From: a virus
Virus record (IMG/VR): IMGVR_UViG_3300027782_003601
Location: 96,001 to 160,000 of that record
Direction: 5' to 3' (one strand)
DNA length: 64,000 nt
Part shown: piece by piece, positions 2,421-13,068 of the stretch
Layout of the letters: each line of letters opens with the position of its first letter
Numbering within the stretch: the first letter of the stretch is position 1
The notes under the pieces: model-generated
Told to the model about the DNA's origin: nothing
The model's database searches: none
What the model saw: only the letters and a program-made list of their open reading frames with translations
Made by a program: the position numbers and the translations under genes

Positions 2421-5400
2421 ATGAAATTAGAAGTAGATAAACCAGAGGTAAAAAAATTAGTAGTAGTATACTCGGGTCGTTTCCAACCATTCCATGCTGG
2501 GCACTATGTATCCTATTTAAAACTTTGTCAAAAATTTGGCAAAGATAATGTATATATTGCAACATCAAACGTAACATCTGGTCCAAAATCTCCATTTAAT
2601 TTTAACGAAAAAAAGGAAATTGCAACTAAAATGTTCAATGTTCCATCTGATAAATTTATAGAAGTTAAAAACCCATATGCTCCTAAAGAAATATTACAAC
2701 ATTTTGATGGAAAAACTACTGCTTATATTGCAGCAGTTGGGGAAAAAGATGAAAGTAGATTAACTGGTAAATATTTTAAACCATATAAAGGTAAAACTGG
2801 ATATGGATATGATGAGATAGGATATACATACGCAGTTCCTGCCGAATCAAACCCAATTAGTGGAACGGATGTTCGTAATTGGTTAGGTAGTGGAGATGAT
2901 GAATCTAAAAAGAAAAGATTCTTAAAAGCATATCCAAAGTTTAATGCAGATATTTTTAAAATGATAACAAACAAATTAAATGAAGATGGATTTCCTGGAG
3001 GAATCGGTACTGGTTTAGATTTACCAGGAGGATATATTAATGGTGCACCAACGGGTTCAACAAACGAATCAAATAATACTCACCCATCTTCAGAATTTAG
3101 AAAAGAACCACATCCAACAAGATATGAAACAGAACATCCATCGGATGAACCTGATTGGTATAAAACTGAAAATTTATATGACCCAATTGGAAATGTAATT
3201 GATAGAGTTGTTGCTGAAGAAATATTTAAAGAATTTTCTAAACAATATTTTGGTGAAGCTCCTAATCCTATAATGGATAAGGAGTTTGATTATACTGCTG
3301 CAGATGGTAAAAAGAAAAAAATTACTGTTAAAGGTGCATTAAGATTACCAAAAGAACATCCTGCACACGTTCAAGCTTCCAAATTAGTTGGTAGTGATAA
3401 AACATCTGCAATAGCAAAAGGACCAGAGGATGCTCCTGCAAACGAACCAAAAAAATTACCACAACAAGGAAAAGCTGCAAAACAAGCAGCAAAACCTGCT
3501 CAACCTGGACAACCAGTTAAGCAAGGTCAGACTCAACAAGGTAAAGCAGATAAGGCAACGGGAAAATCCACAACATCCACACCACAAGGAGCAGAACAAA
3601 CTCCACCTCCACAAACATTAAGTGGTGATGAATTAAAATCATCAGCTGAAAAGAAAAAAGATACAAACAAAAGTGTATTTGGAAAATGGGGTGATAGATT
3701 TAAACAAGAAGTTAAAGAAATTGGAGATACTATTAAAACATTTTTGGATGAAGATGAAGCTCATATAGCACATGAAGGACATGACCCGAATTCTCCAATA
3801 AGAAAAAAAATCACAGAAAAACTTACTGATTTTGTAGCAAAAATGCCTGCAAATGTTGCAAAGCATGTATTAAAAGTTGCAAAACAAAAAGTACATCAAT
3901 TAAAAAATACAGGTAGAGGTATTCAATCATTGGCAGTATCTGCAATGAAAGGTGAAAAACCTAAATTTGGTATGTATAAAAATAGAGATGGTAAATGGCA
4001 ACATAGTGAAAATGAAGCTAAAAGACAAAAGAAGGCATTTATAGATACTGGAAAAGATATTGCATTAACTGCGGCAGCAGTAGTAACCGCAGGTGCAATT
4101 TCGGGAGCAGTAGCAGGTGCAGCTCATGGAATTGGTGGAATTGCACATGGCGCAGCTCATGGAGCAACACATACATTATCTCATGGGGTAAGTGGATTTT
4201 TACATCATATGGCAGTTGATTTTGGAAAACATTGTTTTAAAGAATCTGTATTTTTAGCAACTGGCGCAGGACATACTCAAGCAGCTAATTTAGCTATGGG
4301 AGCGGGTTTAATTGGTGAAAATATTTGGAAAAATACAATCAATGAAGAAGATGATATTAAACAAAATACATCAATGTATACCGAATTATTGAAACAAACT
4401 TTGGAAAAAATGGAAACGTTTGAACCAAATCCAACTCAATATTTGGAAATGCTAAAATCATATGCGGCAACTAAACAAAAAGCAGATTTGCAAAAATTAG
4501 TAGGTCCTATGAATGAAGTAATTTCTCCATTAAAAAGAGAAAACGTAAATCATTTTGTAGAATACGCAACTAAACGATTAAAATTAAAAGAACAACCAAA
4601 AGTAACATTAATAGAAGACCCTGAGTTTTCAAAACAAAATCATTCATTAGGAGGATACAATGTTGATTCTAAAGAAATATTTGTAGCAACTGAAGGTAGA
4701 TTAACTGCGGATATTTTAAGAACTATTGCACATGAAATGGTTCATAGAAAGCAAGATGAAATGGGATTGATTGGTGATTCAGTAAAAGATGGTGCAGATG
4801 GTTCTCCAATAGAAAATAAAGCAAATTCAATAGCAGCAATATTACTAAGAGAATATGGTAAATTAAATAAAACAATTTACAATGAAGATATTAATATAGA
4901 TGTTGATAAGGGTGATACTGTTTTAATGGGTAAATTTAAAAACAAAAAAGTAGTAGCAAAAGACTTTGGAACTGATGACCATGGAATGCCAACAATCAAT
5001 GGTAAAGTTGCAACCACATTTAGAATACCAAGAGGAGAAGAAAAACCAGATTCACAATCCGTATTTGATGAAGTAACTACAAACGATTGGCATTTTAAAG
5101 CAATTATGGCTTTATATGATAAATCAAATTCATTTGGTAAAAAGAAAATAGCAGCAGCAGTTTGTTCAGACCCAAATGCAAATAGAAAAGATATTGTAGT
5201 TCAATTGAGAGATTCGGATTATCAAGAAGTAACTGCTATTACTGATAAATTAAGATTATCAGAATATATTGAAAAAAAAAAATTAAATGAAATTGAAGCT
5301 AAAACTAAAGGATTAGGTGGAACTAATCCAAATGATTACGAAACAAAAGCTGAAAAAGATTTTAATAAACACCATAGTATAGATATGTACACAAATTCAT

Positions 5401-6962
5401 TAGGTACTTTAGATAAAGATACTGTTGATTTTGATGATGGTGGTGTTGATGTTGGATTTGTTCCATATAATTCAAAAAAAGATAAAATAAAAAGAGGTTA
5501 TGAGCCTGTTAAAACTGAAAAACTAACACAATCTAATTTAGATAGTGTTGAAAAATATGCAGATAGAGAATTAAAACCTGCTGATATAGAGTTTAGTAAT
5601 CATTTTTTTGATAGAGTTAATGATACTCGTAATGGTAAAGAAATATCTGAACCAGAACTAACTGGTTTTTTTAAGAGATTAATACGCCACAAAAAACAAT
5701 TTATAGATTTTTTAGATAAATACAATCAAATCGTAGTTAAAGACGATAGAAGTAATATCAATATTCCATTTGCAAAGATGGCAAATAAAGTTATTGCCAA
5801 AACTATAATGAGAAAAAATGATTTTCAAACCACTTCTCCTACAATCGTAAATGAAGTAGGTGAGGGTTCATCAAAGCCATATTCTTTTACTCAAAAAAGA
5901 AACGAAAAAAATAATAAAATTTACTCATTTACTACCACTTCAAATGAAGATTATAGAGTTGAGTTTGATTATAAAGATAAGTTTGATGCTTGGGAGGTAT
6001 CATTTGCTACATATTTTGATTCAGATGATGCAGTTATAAATAAAGGAGAACTATACTCTGTAATGGCAACTATAACAAATATATCATTAGATTTTATTAA
6101 AAAAGTAAATCCTAAAACAGTATATTTTTCATCTTCAAAAAATTTTGATAATGATAATAGACGTGAAAAACTTTATTTGGCTTATATAAAAAAACAACTC
6201 CCTAATTGGAAATTGGGTAAAAACTCTGGTTTTACTACATTGACTAACCCTAAATATAATAATCAACCAAAGTTTGATTGGTTAAAACAACCAATAAATG
6301 AAATTACACAAGGTTTGTATGCAGGTAAAATTAAAATTGGTGGACAATCAGTTGATATTGAAGTAGAATTATTAGGAGCTGACAATAAAACAAAAGAGTT
6401 TTTAACAAAGATAATTCACATAGATAAAGAATATCAGAACAAATTACCTATTGGTTCTCAATTCAAAATACCAGCAAGAGTATTTAGAATGCCAGGTGGT
6501 GGATGGCACAAAATTAAATCATCCGCATTTAAAGAATCATTAAATGAGGGCGGAGCATATGGACATATGTCTCATCCGTTTGATGATATGAATTTAACTT
6601 TTGGTGATTTAAAAAATATAATCACAAATGCATTAACTGGTAATTTAGAATTGACAAGAGAAAAATGTATAGCTGGTGATACTATAATACATACTGAAAA
6701 AAATGGTGATATGACTATTGCAAAGTTTGTAGATAATAAATTAGTTGATAAAGTATTGTCATTTAATGAAGAAACCAAACAAAATGAATATATGGATGTT
6801 ATGTTATCTTTTAATAATGATATTTCAGATGATTGGTTGGAAATTGAATTAGAGGATGGAAAAACTATACAAGTAACTCCGAATCATAGAATGTATGTAG
6901 AAGGAATTGGATATGTTGAAGCAAAACATTTGACAAAAGATATGGAGTTAAAAATAATCTAA
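2421..6962 (+). CDS. Giant multi-domain protein, N-part of fractured gene: HxGH nucleotidyltransferase, HExxH domain, further modules, N-half of a ligase-like domain, then IntN
   Basis: GRFQPFHAGH (HxGH cytidylyltransferase-like), IAHEMVH (zincin motif), GHMSHPFD...TREK followed by intein block A C-IAGDT. Confidence 0.85.
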   Translation: MKLEVDKPEVKKLVVVYSGRFQPFHAGHYVSYLKLCQKFGKDNVYIATSNVTSGPKSPFNFNEKKEIATKMFNVPSDKFIEVKNPYAPKEILQHFDGKTTAYIAAVGEKDESRLTGKYFKPYKGKTGYGYDEIGYTYAVPAESNPISGTDVRNWLGSGDDESKKKRFLKAYPKFNADIFKMITNKLNEDGFPGGIGTGLDLPGGYINGAPTGSTNESNNTHPSSEFRKEPHPTRYETEHPSDEPDWYKTENLYDPIGNVIDRVVAEEIFKEFSKQYFGEAPNPIMDKEFDYTAADGKKKKITVKGALRLPKEHPAHVQASKLVGSDKTSAIAKGPEDAPANEPKKLPQQGKAAKQAAKPAQPGQPVKQGQTQQGKADKATGKSTTSTPQGAEQTPPPQTLSGDELKSSAEKKKDTNKSVFGKWGDRFKQEVKEIGDTIKTFLDEDEAHIAHEGHDPNSPIRKKITEKLTDFVAKMPANVAKHVLKVAKQKVHQLKNTGRGIQSLAVSAMKGEKPKFGMYKNRDGKWQHSENEAKRQKKAFIDTGKDIALTAAAVVTAGAISGAVAGAAHGIGGIAHGAAHGATHTLSHGVSGFLHHMAVDFGKHCFKESVFLATGAGHTQAANLAMGAGLIGENIWKNTINEEDDIKQNTSMYTELLKQTLEKMETFEPNPTQYLEMLKSYAATKQKADLQKLVGPMNEVISPLKRENVNHFVEYATKRLKLKEQPKVTLIEDPEFSKQNHSLGGYNVDSKEIFVATEGRLTADILRTIAHEMVHRKQDEMGLIGDSVKDGADGSPIENKANSIAAILLREYGKLNKTIYNEDINIDVDKGDTVLMGKFKNKKVVAKDFGTDDHGMPTINGKVATTFRIPRGEEKPDSQSVFDEVTTNDWHFKAIMALYDKSNSFGKKKIAAAVCSDPNANRKDIVVQLRDSDYQEVTAITDKLRLSEYIEKKKLNEIEAKTKGLGGTNPNDYETKAEKDFNKHHSIDMYTNSLGTLDKDTVDFDDGGVDVGFVPYNSKKDKIKRGYEPVKTEKLTQSNLDSVEKYADRELKPADIEFSNHFFDRVNDTRNGKEISEPELTGFFKRLIRHKKQFIDFLDKYNQIVVKDDRSNINIPFAKMANKVIAKTIMRKNDFQTTSPTIVNEVGEGSSKPYSFTQKRNEKNNKIYSFTTTSNEDYRVEFDYKDKFDAWEVSFATYFDSDDAVINKGELYSVMATITNISLDFIKKVNPKTVYFSSSKNFDNDNRREKLYLAYIKKQLPNWKLGKNSGFTTLTNPKYNNQPKFDWLKQPINEITQGLYAGKIKIGGQSVDIEVELLGADNKTKEFLTKIIHIDKEYQNKLPIGSQFKIPARVFRMPGGGWHKIKSSAFKESLNEGGAYGHMSHPFDDMNLTFGDLKNIITNALTGNLELTREKCIAGDTIIHTEKNGDMTIAKFVDNKLVDKVLSFNEETKQNEYMDVMLSFNNDISDDWLEIELEDGKTIQVTPNHRMYVEGIGYVEAKHLTKDMELKII
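6666..6962 (+). mobile_element. Split intein N-fragment (98 aa), conventional split site
   Basis: Starts Cys1 (CIAGDTIIHT); block B IQVTPNHRMY (TxxH); ends YVEAKHLTKDMELKII*. Confidence 0.92.
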
Positions 6963-6964
6963 CA

Positions 6965-6979
6965 ACCATCAGTTTTTTC
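6965..6979 (-). promoter_or_regulatory. Copy of the intein-less insertion site (GAA AAA ACT GAT GGT = EKTDG); candidate endonuclease operator
   Basis: Reverse complement of accatcagttttttc matches the reconstructed empty site GAAAAA|ACGGATGGG at 13/15, with both mismatches at codon third positions. Confidence 0.65.
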
Positions 6980-7017
6980 ACAAAATTTATATTTATATGT
7001 AAATAAAAACTATAAAT

Positions 7018-7752
7018 ATGATTGAAAAGTGTAAATATTGTGAAATAAAAATTAAAATTATTGGAAAAAATAGTATGAATGGACATATAACAAATTGTAA
7101 AAAATATAAAGAATGGAGAGATACTACTTTTAATTATGATTTTTTATATGATGCGTACATAGTAAATGGAAAGTCCGCATTACAAATTGCAAATGAAAAT
7201 GGGTGGAAATCATCTACTATAGTAAATAAACAATTGAATAGATTGGGTATAGCTGTTAGAAATGTTAAACAATCCCACCATATGTATGAGTATAAGTCTA
7301 GAATTGAAAAAACTAATTTTAAAAAATATGGAGCAGTAAATCCATTAAGTAAAGGAACTGTATCATATGAAAAACGAAATAAAACAGTTAAAGAAAAATA
7401 CGGAGTTGATAATGTATTTCAACATATGGATGTTAAAGAAAAAATAAGAAATTCTGGAGCATTCAAATCATTATTTCCAAACTATAATATAAATTCTATA
7501 CGAATTATAGAAGAGTATGGTAAGAAATATGGATATAATTTTCAACATGCCGAAAATGGGGGAGAATATTTTGTAAATGGGCTTGGATATTATTTGGATG
7601 GGTATGATAAAGAAAAAAATGTAGTAATTGAAATAGATGAATCCCATCATTTTAATAAAGATGGTTCACTTAAACAAAAAGATATAATACGTCAACAAAA
7701 AATAGAAGAATTATTACTATGTAAATTTATTAGAATAAAATATGAGAATTAA
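7018..7752 (+). CDS. Free-standing homing endonuclease, Vsr-like PD-(D/E)xK / EDxHD-type C-terminal nuclease
   Basis: YLDGYD..KNVVIEIDESHH..KD..RQ. N-terminus has a CxxC..H..C Zn-finger-like segment, an HTH-like segment and KYGxxN repeats. Lies between IntN and IntC. Confidence 0.85.
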   Translation: MIEKCKYCEIKIKIIGKNSMNGHITNCKKYKEWRDTTFNYDFLYDAYIVNGKSALQIANENGWKSSTIVNKQLNRLGIAVRNVKQSHHMYEYKSRIEKTNFKKYGAVNPLSKGTVSYEKRNKTVKEKYGVDNVFQHMDVKEKIRNSGAFKSLFPNYNINSIRIIEEYGKKYGYNFQHAENGGEYFVNGLGYYLDGYDKEKNVVIEIDESHHFNKDGSLKQKDIIRQQKIEELLLCKFIRIKYEN

Positions 7753-7846
7753 ATCTATAAAAAAAATAAATAAAGAGCAAAACAGATATGATTTAAAAGT
7801 AGATGGGTTTTCATGCTACTATGCAAATGATATATTAGTTCATAAT
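7742..7846 (+). mobile_element. Split intein C-fragment (35 aa), +1 residue Thr
   Basis: MRIKSIKKI..RYDLKV..YYANDILVHN followed by Thr (ACG 7847). Confidence 0.92.
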
Positions 7847-8887
7847 ACGGATGGGCAAGCTCTTGCAATTAGTTGGAAAAATGGTAGATTAATTGCAGCA
7901 AGAAACAAATCACATTTACAAAATGCAGGAGTAGGTGCTATGGGTATTGAAGATGTTGCATCAAAGTTTGCAGGTAGAGGTGGATTAACTGATGCTTACA
8001 ACTTTGCAATGAAAGATTTATCAGCAGCAATTCAATCTCTTTCAGAACCACAGAGAAAAAAAATATTTAACGAAGGACAGTGTTTTATGAATTTAGAGGT
8101 TATATGGCCTACATCGGTAAATGTAATACCTTATGGACAACCACTATTAGTATTTCACAATACAACTTGTTATGATGAGAAAGGTGTAGCAATCGGAGCA
8201 AATCAAGGAGCAGCAACAATGTTGGCAGGAATGATTAAACAAGTAAATGGAGATGTTCAATCTAAATATACAATTCAAGGACCTCCTGTAACAAAATTAC
8301 CAAATAATGAAGAATTGAGTTCTAAGCAAAGTAAATATTTAACACAACTACAAAAATTACAATTTCAATTTCAATTAAGTAATAAAGATGGTGTAGCAGA
8401 TTATCATCGTGCTTGGTGGGCAAACTTCATAGATAAGAGTAAAGTTAAGTTACAAAAATTAGAAAGAGATGCTTTAATTAACAGATGGGCATTTGGTGAT
8501 AAATCATTGCGTTTAAATACTATTACTGATAAAGATGCTCAAAAATGGGCAATGGATAATGATAAAGTAAATGTGGCAAACCAACAAAAAGAAAATATCA
8601 GACCATTTGAGGAAATATTTTTAGGAGTTGGAGCAGATGTTTTATCATTTATGGATTCAGTATTAACTGTAAATCCAAATGCAGCAGTTGCTAATATGAA
8701 ACAAAGATTAAAAGATACTGCTGATAAGGTAAGAGGTAGTGGAGATGTATCTAAAATAGAAAAATTAAAGAAAGAATTAGCAAGATTACAATCAATTGGT
8801 GGATTGGATAAGATAGTTCCAAATGAGGGTATTGTATTTATTTATAAAGGAAACACTTATAAACTTACAGGAACTTTTGCACCTTAA
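7742..8887 (+). CDS. C-part of fractured gene: IntC (35 aa) plus C-extein completing an RNA/DNA-ligase-like nucleotidyltransferase domain
   Basis: YDLKV...ILVHN|TDGQ. Splicing restores EKTDG (motif I KxDG); later FMNLEVI, LLVFH, EGIVF and YKLT resemble ligase motifs III-V. Confidence 0.85.
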   Translation: MRIKSIKKINKEQNRYDLKVDGFSCYYANDILVHNTDGQALAISWKNGRLIAARNKSHLQNAGVGAMGIEDVASKFAGRGGLTDAYNFAMKDLSAAIQSLSEPQRKKIFNEGQCFMNLEVIWPTSVNVIPYGQPLLVFHNTTCYDEKGVAIGANQGAATMLAGMIKQVNGDVQSKYTIQGPPVTKLPNNEELSSKQSKYLTQLQKLQFQFQLSNKDGVADYHRAWWANFIDKSKVKLQKLERDALINRWAFGDKSLRLNTITDKDAQKWAMDNDKVNVANQQKENIRPFEEIFLGVGADVLSFMDSVLTVNPNAAVANMKQRLKDTADKVRGSGDVSKIEKLKKELARLQSIGGLDKIVPNEGIVFIYKGNTYKLTGTFAP

Positions 8888-8960
8888 ATCAGATTTTAGG
8901 TATTTTTTACGAATAGTTTGATATATATAATAAATAAATTAGTTATATTAATATAGAATT

Positions 8961-9629
8961 ATGGCAAAGAGAAAATCCTTTGAAGAAAAAAACAAACACA
9001 TTCACAAATCTCGTCAATTAATTATAGATACGGTTTTTGGTAGAACGGATGATAATCAAACAACATTTGGTTACGAAAAAGAAGCCGACAAAAAAAGAGA
9101 AATTGGTGAAAAATGGGTGGATAGTGATGGTGTACAATGGGAACAAAAAGATGGGTTTAGAACAAACCTAACTAAAATGGATGAAGTAAGAGAATTCTTA
9201 CAAAAAATCAGTAGATGTTCTTTACCTGAATGTAAAACTGTAAAATATAGTACTGCAGATAAAAAAGCAATTGTTAAAACTACTATGTGTTTAGATTGCT
9301 TATCTAAAGTTGAAACAAAATTAAGAGTAGATGGTACATGGCCATTTTATGAGGATTATAAGATTACATTAAATAAATTAGGTTATATAAGAGATATAAA
9401 ATCTCAAATGGAAGAAGCATTGTTAGGTATTAAACAACAAGTTGAAATGGTAAATGAAAATGGTACTATTTCTAAATGGCAATGGGATATTGATATTGAA
9501 AAAGTAAAAGAAGATATTAAAAAAGATATAGATGGAGCATATGATGCAATTGAAGCTTTATTAGAAAGAAAATTAGCATTAGAAGAAAAATTGATAGAAT
9601 TAAATCATTCAGAACTTATAAAACAATAG
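8961..9629 (+). CDS. Hypothetical protein with Zn-finger-like Cys pairs and coiled-coil C-terminus
   Basis: CSLPEC...CLDC; long ORF with normal codon usage. Confidence 0.75.
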   Translation: MAKRKSFEEKNKHIHKSRQLIIDTVFGRTDDNQTTFGYEKEADKKREIGEKWVDSDGVQWEQKDGFRTNLTKMDEVREFLQKISRCSLPECKTVKYSTADKKAIVKTTMCLDCLSKVETKLRVDGTWPFYEDYKITLNKLGYIRDIKSQMEEALLGIKQQVEMVNENGTISKWQWDIDIEKVKEDIKKDIDGAYDAIEALLERKLALEEKLIELNHSELIKQ

Positions 9630-9632
9630 ATT

Positions 9633-10259
9633 ATGACAAAGATATTTTCATTCGCAAACATTTTAATAGTTGGTTTAATTGCATTTATTGTATTTAAACA
9701 ATGTAGTAGTGAGGATAAAGAAATTAAAACTATTAATGTTGATGGTAAAAAATATGAATTACTAAAACATAAAATAGATACATTTGTCGTTGAACATACA
9801 CAAATAAAATACAGAAAAGGAAAAGATATTCCTTATGAAGTAATTGTAGAAAAAGAAAAAAAAGTAGAAGTACCTGTTTATATAAAAGCCGATACTGAAA
9901 GAATATTAAAAGATTACCATGCAAAAGTTTTGTATAAAGATAAATTAGTATTAGATAATGAGTTGGGGACAATTGAAATAACTGATACTATATCTATGAA
10001 TAAAATTATTGGTAGAAAGTGGAATGCTCAAATGAGAGAAAGAACTGTTACTGATACTAAAATTGTAAAAGAACTTCCAAAAAATCAAGTTTATATTGGG
10101 GCACAGGGTGTGATAGGTAATTCTATTGTAATGGTTGGACCTCAAATAACTTTAAAAACCAAAAAAGATAATCTATATGGTGTAAATTTGTTTTTAGATG
10201 CAAACGGAAACAAATACTACGGAGCATCTATTGGTTGGAAGATTAGATTGAAAAAATAA
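9633..10259 (+). CDS. Membrane-anchored / possible lipoprotein, possibly lysis-related
   Basis: N-terminal hydrophobic stretch ending FIVFKQC; C-terminal amphipathic beta strands ending YYGASIGWKIRLKK. Confidence 0.55.
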   Translation: MTKIFSFANILIVGLIAFIVFKQCSSEDKEIKTINVDGKKYELLKHKIDTFVVEHTQIKYRKGKDIPYEVIVEKEKKVEVPVYIKADTERILKDYHAKVLYKDKLVLDNELGTIEITDTISMNKIIGRKWNAQMRERTVTDTKIVKELPKNQVYIGAQGVIGNSIVMVGPQITLKTKKDNLYGVNLFLDANGNKYYGASIGWKIRLKK

Positions 10260-10260
10260 T

Positions 10261-11115
10261 ATGGCAGTTCAAGGGCAACCTAAAAAATCTCTTAAAGAGA
10301 TAATTGCAGAAGAATATCGTAAATGTGGATTAGACCCAATTTACTTTATGAAAAAATATTGTGTTATCCAACACCCAACAAGAGGTAAAATACCTTTCCA
10401 CCTATATCCGTTTCAGGAAAATTGTTTAACAGACTTTAAAGAAAATCGTTTCAACATTATTCTTAAATCCCGTCAATTGGGTTTATCAACCCTTTCTGCG
10501 GGTTTTATTTTGTGGAAAATGTTGTTTAACGAAGATTTCAATGCATTGGTTATTGCAACTAAAGTAACAGTAGCAAAAAACTTAGTAGAGAAAGTAAGAG
10601 TAATGCACGATTTACTACCCGTATGGTTAAGAGATGGTGGGAACTCTTCGGTTGAAGATAACAAACTATCACTTAAACTAAAGAACGGTTCTCAGGTTAA
10701 AGCAATTGCATCCTCACCCGATGCAGGACGTTCGGAAGCCCTATCCCTATTAGTAGTGGATGAGGCAGCATTCATTAGAGATATTGATGAAATTTGGTTA
10801 TCCGCACAATCAACTCTATCAACGGGTGGTAGTGCAATTGTATTATCAACTCCAAATGGTGTGGGTAACTGGTTTCACAAAATGTGGGTAGAAGGGGAAA
10901 GTGGTGCAAATGGATTTAATCCTATAAATCTCCATTGGACAGTTCATCCAGAAAGAAATCAAAATTGGAGAGATGAACAAACTCGTATTTTGGGAGCAAA
11001 AGGAGCAGCACAAGAATGTGATTGTTTGTGGGGTGAATCCAAAGTTCAAGTTAAAAACCTAGAAACGATGGAAATAGACCATTATACTTTGGAACAATTG
11101 TATGATATTTTATAA
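10261..11115 (+). CDS. terL: Terminase large subunit (T4 gp17-like) N-part (ATPase) plus short IntN
   Basis: YPFQ adenine motif, KSRQLGLST Walker A, LLVVDEAAF Walker B, STPNG motif III; ends QECD|CLWGES... Confidence 0.95.
   Translation: MAVQGQPKKSLKEIIAEEYRKCGLDPIYFMKKYCVIQHPTRGKIPFHLYPFQENCLTDFKENRFNIILKSRQLGLSTLSAGFILWKMLFNEDFNALVIATKVTVAKNLVEKVRVMHDLLPVWLRDGGNSSVEDNKLSLKLKNGSQVKAIASSPDAGRSEALSLLVVDEAAFIRDIDEIWLSAQSTLSTGGSAIVLSTPNGVGNWFHKMWVEGESGANGFNPINLHWTVHPERNQNWRDEQTRILGAKGAAQECDCLWGESKVQVKNLETMEIDHYTLEQLYDIL
11023..11115 (+). mobile_element. Atypically short split intein N-fragment (30 aa)
   Basis: CLWGESKVQVKNLETMEIDHYTLEQLYDIL*: block A only, no block B. Confidence 0.88.
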
Positions 11116-11131
11116 TTTATATATTTATACG

Positions 11132-11147
11132 CAAGAATGCGATTGTG
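11132..11147 (+). promoter_or_regulatory. Copy of the intein-less terL insertion site (CAA GAA TGC GAT TGT G = QECDC); candidate endonuclease operator
   Basis: CAAGAATGCGATTGTG vs reconstructed empty site CAAGAATGTGAT|TGTG: 15/16, mismatch at a wobble position; 2 nt downstream of ATATTTATA. Confidence 0.7.
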
Positions 11148-11888
11148 GAAAATATGAACTATGTAACAGAAGGCTGGCAAAAAATAAAAAAATCAATAGA
11201 AATTATTGATAAAATTTATTCATTTGATGAAACTAAAACTTTATTATTAAATGAGTATTATTATGAAAATTATTTTGGAAAAGCTAAAAATAGAACTTTA
11301 ATAAACGATAATCCAAAACTATATAAATCAATATATTATCATAGTAGTATTTTAGAAGATACTATGAAAAATCACAACAGATATAAGGGATGGTATAATT
11401 TTAAATTTAGATTAAAATTTATAGCTGAAATTGATGGTAATATAAATAAATTAAAATGCAATTGTGGAAAAACATATACATGGAATGTTTATTGTAGAAG
11501 TTGTCCTGAATATCACAAAACTTGGTTAGGTAAGAATCATACCGATGATACTAAAAAACTAATGAGAGTATCCACAATTAAGTATTTAGATAAAACTAAT
11601 GGACAACTAGCACCGAGATATAATATAAATTCAATACCAATAATAGAGGAATACGGAAAAATCAATGGATATAATTTTCAGCATGCAGAAAATGGTGGTG
11701 AATACCATATCAAAGAATTGGGTTATTTTTTAGATGGATATGATGTTGAAAAAAATGTAGTTATTGAAATAGATGAAAGGCATCATTTTGATTCAAATGG
11801 TAAATTGAAAAAAAAAGATATAAAAAGAGAGCAGGAAATAACCAAATTATTAAAATGTGATTTTATACGGATAAAATATGAAAACTGA
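11145..11888 (+). CDS. Free-standing homing endonuclease, Vsr-like / EDxHD-type (start GTG 11145 or ATG 11154)
   Basis: FLDGYD..KNVVIEIDERHH..KD..RE; CNC..CRSC and NUMOD3-like HTDDTKKLMR. C-terminal 91 aa about 75% identical to 7018-7752 (manual alignment). Confidence 0.85.
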   Translation: MENMNYVTEGWQKIKKSIEIIDKIYSFDETKTLLLNEYYYENYFGKAKNRTLINDNPKLYKSIYYHSSILEDTMKNHNRYKGWYNFKFRLKFIAEIDGNINKLKCNCGKTYTWNVYCRSCPEYHKTWLGKNHTDDTKKLMRVSTIKYLDKTNGQLAPRYNINSIPIIEEYGKINGYNFQHAENGGEYHIKELGYFLDGYDVEKNVVIEIDERHHFDSNGKLKKKDIKREQEITKLLKCDFIRIKYEN

Positions 11889-12222
11889 TTATATATTAAA
11901 ACTTAATACTAAATACGAAATAATGACTCCAAATGGTTATAAATCATTTGGTGGTATTCGTAAATTAATAAAAAGTGATTATTATGAAATACACTTATCA
12001 AACGGATATAAATTAAAATGTTCTATAAACCATAAATTTATAAAAGATGGCGTTGAAATAGTAATCAATGATATAAATGTTGGTGATTATATTGATGGTG
12101 ATGATAATAAAAAAGTTGTCATACAAATTAAGGAATATAAAACAAAAGATATTACATTATTTGATATTGTAGAAGTAGATGGTGGTAATATATTTAATGT
12201 TGATGGTGTAGTTTCTCATAAT
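11878..12222 (+). mobile_element. Long split intein C-fragment (115 aa), +1 residue Cys
   Basis: TPNGYKSFGGI, block B KCSINHKF, block F LFDIVEV, block G VVSHN. Confidence 0.9.
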
Positions 12223-13068
12223 TGTGATTTTGTTGGTTCTGGAGATACCGTAATAGACCCGGAATTATTAACTTGGTATAAGAACACATATGTAATGGAA
12301 CCTGTTGAAAAAGCAGGGTTTGATAGAAACCTATGGAAATGGGAATATCCAAATTACAACAAACAATATATGGTTATAGCTGACGTTGCAAGAGGAGATG
12401 CAGCCGATTATTCTACTGCACAAGTTTTAGATATTGAAGATTGTTCGCAAGTTGCCGAATATAGAGGAATGATTGATACCAAAGATTTTGGAAACTTTCT
12501 TACTGCATTAGCAACCGAATATAATAATGCACTTTTAGTAGTGGAAAATTCAAACGTAGGTTGGGCATGTATTCAACAAGTAATAGATAGAGGATATCAA
12601 AATTTATTTTATATGAGTAATGATTTAAAATATATTGATGTTGAAAGACAAATGAGTAATAGGTTTTACAGAGATGAAAGGCAAATGGTTGCAGGATTTT
12701 CAACAACAACAAAAACACGTCCTCTTATTATTTCAGCATTAGACACTTATATGAGTGAGAAAGATATTCTTATTCGTAGTGGTAGATTAATAGATGAAAT
12801 GTTTACATTTATTTGGCAAAATGGTAGAGCAGAAGCAATGAAGGGATATAATGATGACTTAATTATGGCATTAGCAATTGGATTATGGGTTCGTAATACT
12901 GCACTTCGTTTAAGACAAGAAGGAATAGATTTAACCAAAAATATGTTAAATTCTGCACACGTTGCTAAATATAGTGGAATGATTACAACAGGTCATTTAA
13001 ATAGTAATCCATATGAAATGGAAGTGGGTAACAAAGAAATAGAAAATTTAACTTGGTTACTTCGTTAA
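11878..13068 (+). CDS. terL: IntC (115 aa) plus terminase large subunit C-part (nuclease domain)
   Basis: ...GVVSHN|CDFVGSG; nuclease motifs IADVARG, VVENS, YNDDLIMALAI. Spliced product would be 254+281 = 535 aa. Confidence 0.93.
   Translation: MKTDYILKLNTKYEIMTPNGYKSFGGIRKLIKSDYYEIHLSNGYKLKCSINHKFIKDGVEIVINDINVGDYIDGDDNKKVVIQIKEYKTKDITLFDIVEVDGGNIFNVDGVVSHNCDFVGSGDTVIDPELLTWYKNTYVMEPVEKAGFDRNLWKWEYPNYNKQYMVIADVARGDAADYSTAQVLDIEDCSQVAEYRGMIDTKDFGNFLTALATEYNNALLVVENSNVGWACIQQVIDRGYQNLFYMSNDLKYIDVERQMSNRFYRDERQMVAGFSTTTKTRPLIISALDTYMSEKDILIRSGRLIDEMFTFIWQNGRAEAMKGYNDDLIMALAIGLWVRNTALRLRQEGIDLTKNMLNSAHVAKYSGMITTGHLNSNPYEMEVGNKEIENLTWLLR

Follow-up and report, generated by a model that had tools for sequence, protein, structure and literature searches.

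Among the described systems closest to the loci analysed here is the operator of I-TevI in phage T4 (Edgell et al.), which shares 15 of 20 positions with the homing site and overlaps a late promoter. I-TevI binds this operator as well as its homing site, with about 100-fold less cutting, and deletion of the operator in T4 gave no obvious phenotype (PMC2988022). A second related case is mobE, located in the split nrdA gene of phage Aeh1 (Gibb and Edgell 2007), for which the passages citing that work in PMC2677866 and PMC2988022 describe a late promoter and a hairpin sequestering the start. Finally, I-Bth0305I is the prototype of the EDxHD (Vsr-like) homing endonucleases, and its catalytic domains recognise the 14 bp at the centre of the site, where cleavage occurs (PMC3239194).

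We analysed a window of 64,000 nt (positions 96,001 to 160,000 of the IMG/VR virus record IMGVR_UViG_3300027782_003601), where two nuclease genes each lie beside a short copy of a target site. From sequence comparison, the best explanation is that each copy would be a functional, promoter-coupled mimic of the naive target of the adjoining nuclease gene.

Two fractured genes and their nucleases

Host gene 1 and the large terminase gene are both present as two adjacent same-strand ORFs, and each is a single gene in relatives. The first locus is organized as follows.

2421..6665, plus strand: N-extein of host gene 1 (ORF list; Pfam CTP_transf_like), a giant protein with a cytidylyltransferase-like N-terminus, ending ...LTREK
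6666..6962, plus strand: IntN of split intein 1, 98 aa starting CIAGDT, plus stop (weak Pfam Hint/Intein_splicing)
6963-7017: spacer 1, from the IntN stop to HEG1
7018..7752, plus strand: HEG1, free-standing homing endonuclease with a C-terminal PD-(D/E)xK nuclease
7742..7846, plus strand: IntC of split intein 1, 35 aa ending ...YYANDILVHN, its start overlapping the HEG1 stop
7847..8887, plus strand: C-extein of host gene 1, first bases ACGGATGGG, protein TDGQALAISW

The N-extein ends with the bases GAAAAA at 6665 and the Cys codon of the intein starts at 6666. IntN of split intein 1 matches the NrdJ-1 intein (E 7e-7), and 77 of 79 relatives of host gene 1 run without intein across the junction REK|TDG (...REK|TDGQ). 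The second locus comprises the following elements.

10261..11022, plus strand: N-extein of the large terminase (Pfam Terminase_6N), protein ending ...AAQECD, DNA ending CAAGAATGTGAT
11023..11115, plus strand: IntN of the atypically split intein 2, 30 aa, CLWGES..., plus stop
11154..11888, plus strand: HEG2, with a nuclease domain as in HEG1 and 150 unrelated N-terminal aa
11878..12222, plus strand: IntC of split intein 2, 115 aa ending ...VVSHN
12223..13068, plus strand: C-extein of the large terminase, DNA starting TGTGAT, protein CDFVGSGD

This IntC matches CatC of the consensus TerL intein (6DSL_B, E 1.5e-17), and 77 intein-less relatives of the terminase are continuous across QECD|CDF, reading AAQECDCDFVGSG. 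At both loci IntN closes the N-terminal part of the gene and IntC opens the C-terminal part, with Cys1, HN+Thr and HN+Cys read directly, and a free-standing endonuclease gene, HEG1 or HEG2, lies between the intein halves. Both loci are fractured genes in the sense of Dassa et al. (2009), and intein 2 is an atypically split intein of the AceL-TerL/Cat kind, with a short IntN, a long IntC and a large terminase as host.

The model of HEG1 displays an N-terminal Zn-ribbon and helix-turn-helix (HTH), a long disordered linker and the PD-(D/E)xK domain; HEG1, of the two enzymes, is the one with a PHROG homing endonuclease match. Their nuclease domains are 74% identical over 93 aa and belong to a family of more than 540 members with swapped N-terminal domains. 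Since these catalytic domains are so similar while the N-terminal domains and targets of HEG1 and HEG2 are unrelated, target specificity probably lies in the N-terminal domains. A DNA-binding module of the HEG1 type can work separately from the catalytic one. Comparison of the nuclease-domain fold gave 3R3P (I-Bth0305I) with Z 6.8 and rmsd 4.8 over 77 aligned residues, and Vsr with Z 6.6, both standing among many PD-(D/E)xK folds of similar Z. Searches of the PDB with phmmer and a 24-sequence profile found no match to the nuclease, the I-Bth0305I group being represented in the comparison by its solved prototype.

Target-site copies beside the nuclease genes

The first-pass annotation had reported that each nuclease gene is preceded by a copy of its own empty target site beside a recurrent motif, and all the sequences that it gave were found at the places indicated.

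6966..6979, minus strand: copy 1, GAAAAAACTGATGG, mimicking the intein-less junction GAAAAA|ACNGATGG
6987..7021, plus strand: RNA hairpin over the HEG1 start codon, in which motif ATATTTATA pairs with TATAAATAT
6989..6997, plus strand: promoter-like motif ATATTTATA of HEG1
11121..11129, plus strand: promoter-like motif ATATTTATA of HEG2
11132..11146, plus strand: copy 2, CAAGAATGCGATTGT, mimicking the terminase target CAAGAATGTGAT|TGT
11455..11471, plus strand: stretch inside HEG2 coding KCNCGK, resembling copy 2 and the bases after it

Copy 1 was first called as GAAAAAACTGATGGT (minus strand, 6965-6979, 13/15 to its own empty site), and comparison with orthologues gives a true length of 14 nt (6966-6979). 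Copy 2 was first called as CAAGAATGCGATTGTG (11132-11147, 15/16), the 16th base of which varies in orthologues. The three mismatches of the two copies together all fall, as claimed, at third codon positions. Copy 1 starts 3 nt past the IntN stop and ends 9 nt short of ATATTTATA; copy 2 begins 2 nt past the motif and ends 7 nt ahead of the HEG2 ATG, so the proposed proximity of about 10 nt to the motifs at 6989 and 11121 was confirmed. The copies are on different strands and on opposite sides of the motif, copy 1 upstream and copy 2 downstream. Both had been said to span the junction. This is right for copy 1, which alone covers the empty junction unambiguously (6 + 8 nt); on the other hand, the first codons of intein 2 and of the terminase C-extein are both TGT, so copy 2 fits the filled allele (N-extein + Cys1) too. 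Copies and homing sites have different flanks, and what they have in common is a core of 14-15 nt. As a separate observation, 11455..11471 of HEG2 equals copy 2 and the next GGAAAA at 16 of 17 bases.

We compared the matches with 5000 shuffles of each spacer, and both spacers did better than their shuffles. For spacer 1, p was ~2e-4 for a junction-spanning match and 0.003-0.006 for any match to the 60-nt site; for spacer 2, the observed score was reached by none of the 5000. Cross-matches of spacer 1 with site 2 and of spacer 2 with site 1 were at noise level, in line with the claim that each copy is specific to its own locus. When the whole 176,192-nt genome was searched with at most one mismatch, the 14-mer of copy 1 occurred in the HEG1 spacer only, and the 15-mer of copy 2 had just two sites, the HEG2 spacer and the genuine junction of N-extein and intein.

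Naive targets were taken from the 77 + 77 intein-less relatives of host gene 1 and the terminase. For host gene 1 the modal target over the 14 nt is GAAAAAACCGATGG (46/77). Copy 1 equals natural naive alleles at 14/14, the ACT form of the window being exact in 8 alleles, and most orthologous copies are identical to the modal target. The modal terminase target is CAAGAATGTGATTGTG (55/77), to which copy 2 fits at 15/16.

Motif ATATTTATA is found 17 times in the window against 6.8 expected, with 14 matches on the plus strand, most of them just upstream of gene starts. It is a recurrent motif and a putative promoter, and its other occurrences in the window are without flanks of the copy type. The hairpin over the HEG1 start codon (-7.1 kcal/mol, z -3.1) is obvious just in the window and its closest relatives.

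Conservation of the copies and their possible role

The presence of the copies in homologous loci was borne out: copy 1 is kept in 12 distinct host-gene-1 loci and copy 2, as CAAGARTGYRAWTGT, in 6 terminase loci. Between loci, the copies agree at 12-14/14 positions (locus 1) and 12-14/15 (locus 2), when most pairs of the adjacent HEG genes have a four-fold-site identity of 0.41-0.58 and 0.17-0.46, respectively. With a neutral identity of ~0.5 per site, a match of at least 13/14 has p ~9e-4 per independent pair, and many lineages have such a match. Columns of the spacer alignment that show no change are concentrated in the copy and in the promoter motif. Judged from these alignments, the copies are under purifying selection. 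Most of their variation falls at wobble positions. In locus 1 it is confined to those of ACN and GAY, where natural targets vary too, as would be expected from a constraint set by the specificity of the nuclease itself. The exteins of the same loci differ at several wobble positions, and the copies do not follow them.

The position of the copies is conserved as well. Each of the 11 host-gene-1 loci with a HEG, among them the distant L102 (in whose copy the A-run is one base shorter) and L391, has a gap of 9 nt to ATATTTATA; in the terminase loci the gap is fixed at 2 nt. All six terminase loci having the spacer carry the copy, and no copy was found where HEG start and IntN stop overlap and there is neither spacer nor promoter, as is the case for five terminase groups and one PhoH-like locus. 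In L279, a deletion starting immediately past the copy has removed the promoter and all of the HEG but its last 15 codons, and the copy is retained. No copy was found at eight independent fractured loci, whose nucleases are GIY-YIG-like, HNH-like or of other types; the copies are thus not general to fractured genes, and the generality that had been implied fails. The novelty claimed for split-intein fractured genes needs tempering.

We propose, with slightly better than even confidence, that the cognate nuclease binds each copy as an operator and so represses its own gene, as I-TevI does in T4. The sequence-specific N-terminal module of the nuclease would bind the 14-15-bp mimic; because the mimic has only this part of the homing site, there would be little or no cutting. 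Once bound, the protein would block the ATATTTATA promoter, lying at about -38 to -25 in locus 1 and over the predicted start site and the 5' leader in locus 2. The enzyme, which is potentially toxic, would thus be under negative autoregulation. We infer here that the nuclease is the binder, that it leaves the mimic uncut and that binding represses. This proposal fits all the comparative evidence, namely selection, fixed spacing, co-occurrence with spacer and promoter, and wobble variation. Against it, the different strand and promoter side of the copies make a single steric mechanism not obvious, copy 2 fits the filled allele as well as the empty site, and the shorter A-run of L102 would change the contact spacing. 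Moreover, the mimic might be cleavable if, by analogy with I-Bth0305I, it were read by the catalytic domains, weak RNA pairings involve both copies, and the operator deletion in T4 (PMC2988022) was without obvious phenotype.

An unlikely second candidate is that the mimic is a genuine nuclease-binding site with a role other than simple repression. It could be a roadblock to read-through from the upstream half of the host gene, a cis tether for the nuclease, a poorly cut site stimulating recombination or loss and gain of the cassette, or a titration sensor derepressed by naive targets. The evidence from selection and target identity applies equally to these four variants; copy 1 sits at the left edge of the cassette, 3 nt past the IntN stop, L279 keeps its copy after loss of HEG and promoter, and the central 14 bp are the cleavage centre in I-Bth0305I. 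However, the fixed promoter spacing and the lack of copies where there is no promoter point to promoter control, and it would be costly for each genome copy to carry a site that can be cut.

It is quite unlikely that the nuclease gene uses the mimic as a sensor of prey. In a cell with intein-bearing genomes only, the nuclease would stay on its own operator and the gene would be off, and the downstream IntC-extein message from that promoter would also be kept low. The many uncut targets of a co-infecting naive genome would then titrate the nuclease off the operator, and derepression would coincide exactly with the opportunity for homing. If this were true across the GIY-YIG, HNH and PD-(D/E)xK folds, target-mimic operators would be a convergent rule, and the mimics a free sequence read-out of each enzyme's recognition core.

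The copies could also be functionless, their likeness to the target being renewed again and again by short-patch gene conversion or by recombination. Donors of target-like DNA would be the CxC-coding stretch in HEG2, the real junction located 120 nt upstream or naive phages that co-infect the cell. The stretch in HEG2 agrees with copy 2 and the bases after it at 16/17 in the window, at 17/17 in L019 and at 11/11 in L020, and it shares three of the four positions at which copy 2 departs from the target consensus; this suggests sequence exchange among short repeats. We find this very doubtful, as 14-15 nt are very short for recombination, the locus-1 target is non-contiguous in intein-bearing genomes and its copy inverted, the copies do not follow their own exteins, and the fixed promoter spacing would not be explained.

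Another hypothesis lies in hairpins: the conserved words would be arms of regulatory RNA or DNA structures of the fractured-gene type, their likeness to targets being incidental. The relevant passages of PMC2677866 (Dassa 2009) report that 15 of 16 endonuclease leaders have a hairpin with late-promoter elements; copy 1 can pair with the conserved 3' coding end of IntN, with the variable N bulged, and TGYRAWTGT in locus 2 can pair with the promoter motif through G-U pairs. Yet the consensus energies are just -1.7 and -4.1 kcal/mol (z-scores -1.7 and -0.35), locus 1 is without compensatory change, the 5' half of copy 2 (CAAGAR) is conserved though unpaired, and pairing explains neither the 14/14 and 15/16 identity to naive targets nor the uniqueness in the genome. 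Such arms are highly improbable. The short target-matching (guide) RNA imagined in the first-pass annotation is unsupported, the predicted RNA structures with the copies being weak, and the different strand and promoter side preclude a single RNA model for both.

A neutral fossil, that is a piece of target picked up as the intein acquired the nuclease cassette and simply decaying since, has next to no probability left: capture at a double-strand break is a plausible origin of the copies, and may be the true one given copy 1 at the very edge of the insert, but their near invariance beside four-fold sites close to saturation rules out the passive captured fragments once suggested.

Comparison with described systems

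Intein 2 resembles AceL-TerL / GOS-TerL and Cat (PDB 6DSL) in its large terminase host, its 30-aa IntN and its 115-aa IntC; this likeness concerns the intein only, not the nuclease gene or the leader. With Aeh1 mobE, the loci share a free-standing nuclease gene between the halves of a host gene and layered control by a late promoter (putative here) and a hairpin sequestering the start; mobE has no intein, and the passages on it in PMC2677866 and PMC2988022 mention no homing-site mimic.

With the fractured genes of Dassa et al. 2009 (PMC2677866), as far as its relevant passages describe them, the common points are the layout, the overlap of nuclease stop and IntC start, a late-promoter-like leader element and, for HEG1, a hairpin over the start codon. 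Those passages report hairpins and two leader motifs, with no target-site copy, and the fractured genes they describe do not include a giant cytidylyltransferase-domain protein or a terminase.

I-Bth0305I (PMC3239194) resembles the HEGs in its phage and metagenome origin, in the ~14 bp that form the core around its insertion site, and in joining an N-terminal DNA-binding region to a C-terminal nuclease of restriction-endonuclease-like fold. Unlike what we propose for HEG1 and HEG2, its specificity lies in the catalytic domains (PMC3239194), and to the HEG nuclease it has no sequence match and a middling fold match.

As for I-TevI, a homing-site-like sequence, part of the homing site, lies just upstream of the nuclease ORF and beside its driving promoter (putative here), and DNA binding and catalysis belong to separable modules of the enzyme. 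I-TevI is, however, an intron ORF, whereas HEG1 and HEG2 are free-standing genes inside split inteins, with a PD-(D/E)xK instead of a GIY-YIG or HNH catalytic domain and the reverse domain order. The mimics abut the motif (9 nt upstream, 2 nt downstream) without overlapping it, and in sequence they are closer to their targets (14/14 and 15/16) than the I-TevI operator is to its own (15/20).

Target copies in the leaders of two fractured genes

The source virus genome (IMG/VR, 176 kb, AT-rich) contains, in the window formed by its bases 96001-160000, two genes of the kind that Dassa et al. 2009 (PMC2677866) called 'fractured'. In each of them a free-standing gene for a homing endonuclease (HEG) lies between the halves (IntN and IntC) of a split intein that interrupts a host gene. 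The features are as follows, in window coordinates.

2421-6962: ORF of 1513 aa, N part of host gene 1 and IntN of intein 1 (98 aa, Cys codon at 6666)
6966-6979, minus strand: copy 1 of the target, 14 nt
6989, plus strand: promoter-like motif ATATTTATA
7018-7752: HEG1, free-standing nuclease gene
7742-8887: ORF with IntC of intein 1 (35 aa ending VHN), then the C-extein (TDGQ...)
10261-11115: N part of the large terminase and IntN of intein 2 (30 aa, Cys codon at 11023)
11121, plus strand: promoter-like motif ATATTTATA
11132-11146: copy 2 of the target, 15 nt
11154-11888: HEG2
11878-13068: ORF with IntC of intein 2 (115 aa ending SHN) and the C-extein, from 12223

The intein halves are backed by Pfam, by NrdJ-1 (E 7e-7) and by the consensus TerL intein CatC (6DSL, E 1.5e-17). 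The spliced product predicted for host gene 1 (2421-8887) has about 1760 aa, its N-terminus being cytidylyltransferase-like, and a search for a family match spanning its intein site found none. This site, K/TDG (the slash marks the junction), resembles in sequence motif I of nucleotidyltransferases; a 'ligase-like' label would have the position of the intein as its sole basis and we do not claim it.

The first-pass annotation had proposed that the spacer before each HEG holds a copy of the intein-less (empty) junction of its own locus. All the sequences that it quoted are present where it had placed them and both copies are confirmed, their extents being corrected to the 14 and 15 nt listed here. 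Their specificity for their own locus was likewise borne out, each spacer matching its own site only. With at most one mismatch allowed, the locus-1 14-mer has a single genome-wide occurrence, in the HEG1 spacer, and the locus-2 15-mer is confined genome-wide to the true junction and the HEG2 spacer. The junction-spanning match of spacer 1 was equalled by 1 of 5000 mononucleotide shuffles and by none of the dinucleotide-preserving ones, while any match to the 60-nt empty site gave a shuffle p of 0.003-0.006; the score observed for spacer 2 was reached by none of the shuffles.

Natural targets were provided by the intein-less relatives. Among host-gene-1 relatives, 77 of 79 loci are intein-less and read ...REK/TDGQ.... 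Their 14-nt junction is GAAAAAACCGATGG in 46 loci and GAAAAAACTGATGG in 8, the latter alleles being identical to the window's copy 1 (14/14); the exteins of the window itself have ACG, a rare form. The intein-less terminase genes (n=77) read AAQECD/CDF, which confirms the splice junction of locus 2, and their target is CAAGAATGTGATTGTG in 55/77, with A-to-G at position 3 in 18 and T-to-C at position 15 in 4. An origin from the empty site is proved by copy 1 alone; copy 2 equally matches the filled N-extein/intein junction, because the first codons of the intein and of the C-extein are both TGT.

Copy 2 also resembles a stretch inside HEG2. Together with the following GGAAAA (11135-11151), it matches 16 of 17 positions of 11455-11471, which code for KCNCGK, and the corresponding comparison gives 17/17 and 11/11 at loci L019 and L020, respectively. 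Copy 2 departs from the consensus of the targets at four positions, and at three of them it agrees with this internal stretch. This likeness suggests some exchange between short repeats, and the internal stretch may reflect gene conversion between such repeats or constitute a second binding site. The conserved CAAGA at the 5' part of copy 2 matches the target only and is unexplained by the internal stretch.

Conservation of the copies and of the promoter-like motif

We compared 12 distinct split-intein host-gene-1 loci, whose HEGs range from 99% identity to the window's down to a distant 284-aa form. Copy 1 lies on the minus strand, directly 3' of the IntN stop, in 12/12 of them. It is GAAAAAACNGATGG in eight loci (N being C in five, T in one and A in two); variants end in GATGA (L016), show a GAC wobble form found among naive alleles too (L391) or have an A-run shorter by one base (L102). 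In the exteins of these loci, wobble positions vary freely. Copy 2 is CAAGARTGYRAWTGT in all six terminase loci with a spacer. As a neutral yardstick we used identity at the four-fold degenerate sites of the adjacent HEGs, which is 0.41-0.58 in most host-gene-1 pairs, against 12-14/14 for copy 1, and 0.17-0.46 in terminase pairs, against 12-14/15 for copy 2. In the spacer alignment, the invariant columns lie in the copy and in the promoter-like motif. The copies being far more conserved than four-fold sites, a decaying relic is excluded, and with it, in that form, the earlier suggestion that they are captured fragments of the target.

One host-gene-1 split-intein locus (L279:2330-2400, IMGVR_UViG_3300010885_006092) has had its nuclease gene and promoter deleted. 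Only the last ~15 codons of the nuclease gene remain (EKLLNCKFIRINYEN), and GAAAAAACAGATGG, the target copy, has stayed in place next to the IntN stop. Judged by its sequence, this locus represents in nature the stage at which a fractured gene has its 'endonuclease lost'.

The motif ATATTTATA occurs 17 times in the window against 6.8 expected. Its sites are mostly intergenic, on the plus strand, 10-30 nt upstream of start codons, a placement by which we identify it as a general promoter-like element of this phage. Copy 1 as part of a generic promoter was rejected, the other 12 plus-strand sites outside the HEG spacers having no flanking CCATCNG...C. The gap between copy 1 and the motif is 9 nt in 11/11 HEG-bearing host-gene-1 loci; at the terminase loci, 2 nt separate the motif from copy 2. 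Five terminase groups, in which the start of the HEG and the IntN stop overlap, lack the spacer, the motif and a second copy; P0070 is another terminase locus without a spacer. Some terminase loci (L027, L028, L030-L032) have their intein two codons upstream (AAQE/CDTEF) of the window's site (AAQECD/CDF), and their nuclease has an extra N-terminal zinc-finger segment.

The nucleases and their distribution

HEG1 and HEG2 have in common a C-terminal domain of 93 aa (74% identity), while their first 150 residues are unrelated. This domain belongs to a large family (549 hits), the members of which have a wide variety of N-terminal modules. A structure model of HEG1 (mean pLDDT 71) predicts a head made of a zinc ribbon and a helix-turn-helix, a linker that is disordered (83-155) and a nuclease domain of the PD-(D/E)xK type. 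Among the many similar folds that this modelled nuclease domain matches are those of I-Bth0305I (Z 6.8) and of Vsr (Z 6.6). Foldseek returned nothing at E <= 0.001 for the whole model, and single-sequence and profile searches of HEG1 against the PDB gave no useful match to solved structures. The sequences point to the N-terminal heads as the target readers: since the catalytic domains are near-identical and the targets unrelated, the heads likely read the targets, unlike in I-Bth0305I.

Several relatives carry altered nuclease genes. A HEG1-orthologue pseudogene with an in-frame stop within the nuclease domain (L014/L015:3001-3735) and a HEG2-orthologue pseudogene without the N-terminal ~100 residues (L033:2998-3426) have both kept the target copy. 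In two HEG2-orthologue leaders (L023 and L444), translation from an upstream in-frame ATG would turn copy 2 into MYSQECDC at the N-terminus of the nuclease; the window's copy 2 does not share the reading frame of HEG2.

Searching the INPHARED phage collection for near-identical copies of the region gave no match. In the related record IMGVR_UViG_3300032246_000793 (loci L294 / L003), the host-gene-1 intein/HEG1 element is 99% identical to that of the window and the terminase is intein-less (AAQECDCNFVGSG). Compared with window 10261-13068, mismatches cluster beside the terminase junction (3' side, 20 within the nearest 460 nt; 5' side, 4 within the nearest 60 nt) and fall below 1% beyond. The cluster has the look of a co-conversion tract left by recent homing of the HEG2 element.

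The first-pass annotation had called for the copies to be sought at other loci with an endonuclease between IntN and IntC. Searching for a conserved IntC motif yielded eight further independent fractured loci, with gp41-like helicase and RNR-like hosts and other nuclease families. None has a junction-spanning copy in the leader (p 0.17-0.99) or a copy anywhere within +/-60 nt of the junction (p 0.08-1.0). The target copy is therefore not a general property of fractured genes. We also sought a third fractured host whose HEG1/HEG2-family nuclease has its own promoter, and found only a spacer-less locus (L445:1490-3192, IMGVR_UViG_3300033121_000954), a PhoH-like ATPase fractured in the Walker A / P-loop (GEAGTAK/TFLA); the intein responsible is atypically split and its IntN has 25 aa. 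The nuclease of this locus (378 aa, same family) starts within an overlap with the IntN stop, and no leader, motif or target copy is present. Leaders of 15 free-standing nucleases of the family, compared with flanking genes, showed no match (p 0.34-0.89), which, with the flanking genes as putative targets, says little. In L056, L094, L079 and L081, a member of the family breaks a family-B DNA polymerase gene at the YGDTDS motif or immediately before it. The part downstream begins with ...TDS and has no canonical IntC; the interruption is perhaps a group I intron or else a simple split.

Proposed autorepression and known systems

The adjacent nuclease is the only known factor with specificity for the words of the copies, and we propose it as their binder. 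The non-coding copies are constrained at the positions where coding constrains the target and, at locus 1, free where natural targets vary, as predicted by selection for nuclease recognition. Bound to such a target-mimic operator, the nuclease would repress its own gene. An established precedent exists in I-TevI of T4, whose operator (Edgell et al.) has 15/20 nt in common with the homing site and overlaps a late promoter. I-TevI binds operator and homing site equally tightly but cuts the operator about 100-fold less, and the operator represses transcription. From this analogy and the pattern of constraint, autorepression appears to be the best explanation, and we consider it moderately probable. 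A nuclease-binding site used for something else ranks next and seems rather unlikely; it would account equally for a copy that follows the constraints of the target. The case of I-Bth0305I, in which the catalytic domains read the central 14 bp (PMC3239194), speaks against autorepression; here, however, the readers are more likely the N-terminal heads.

Readings at the RNA level fare worse. The suggestion that the copies act in a short guide RNA fails, since copy 1 is on the minus strand and upstream of the promoter-like motif, copy 2 on the plus strand and downstream of it. Pairings that involve them show no covariation and are weak, with consensus energies of -1.7 and -4.1 kcal/mol and z-scores for single sequences of -1.7 and -0.35. 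No intrinsic terminator was predicted by scan at copy 1, the T-run lying inside a weak stem and not after one. A hairpin is found at 6987-7021, where ATATTTATA pairs perfectly with TATAAATAT over the HEG1 start codon (z -3.1); it excludes copy 1 and is obvious in the window and L004 only. It corresponds to the start-sequestering design that Dassa et al. and Gibb and Edgell described for mobE and other fractured-gene endonucleases.

The paper of Dassa et al. 2009 (PMC2677866) describes hairpins and late-promoter elements in the leaders of fractured genes and no target copy, and full-text literature searches found no later description of one in such leaders. The principle itself is not new; its setting is, with fractured genes built on split inteins, a nuclease family of the PD-(D/E)xK type and two lineages that are independent. 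The mimics, with 77 + 77 natural targets, would delimit the recognition core (14-15 bp), and the positions in it that tolerate change, of two modular nucleases so far uncharacterised, whose common catalytic domain with different DNA-binding heads makes them attractive for specificity studies and engineering. If autorepression holds, a transcriptional layer would be added to the regulation of fractured genes, for which only leader hairpins have been described so far. Should the nucleases bind the copies, the I-TevI principle would also cover a third catalytic fold and nuclease genes that stand free within split inteins, which would argue for repeated evolution of nucleases that repress themselves through a mimic of the homing site.
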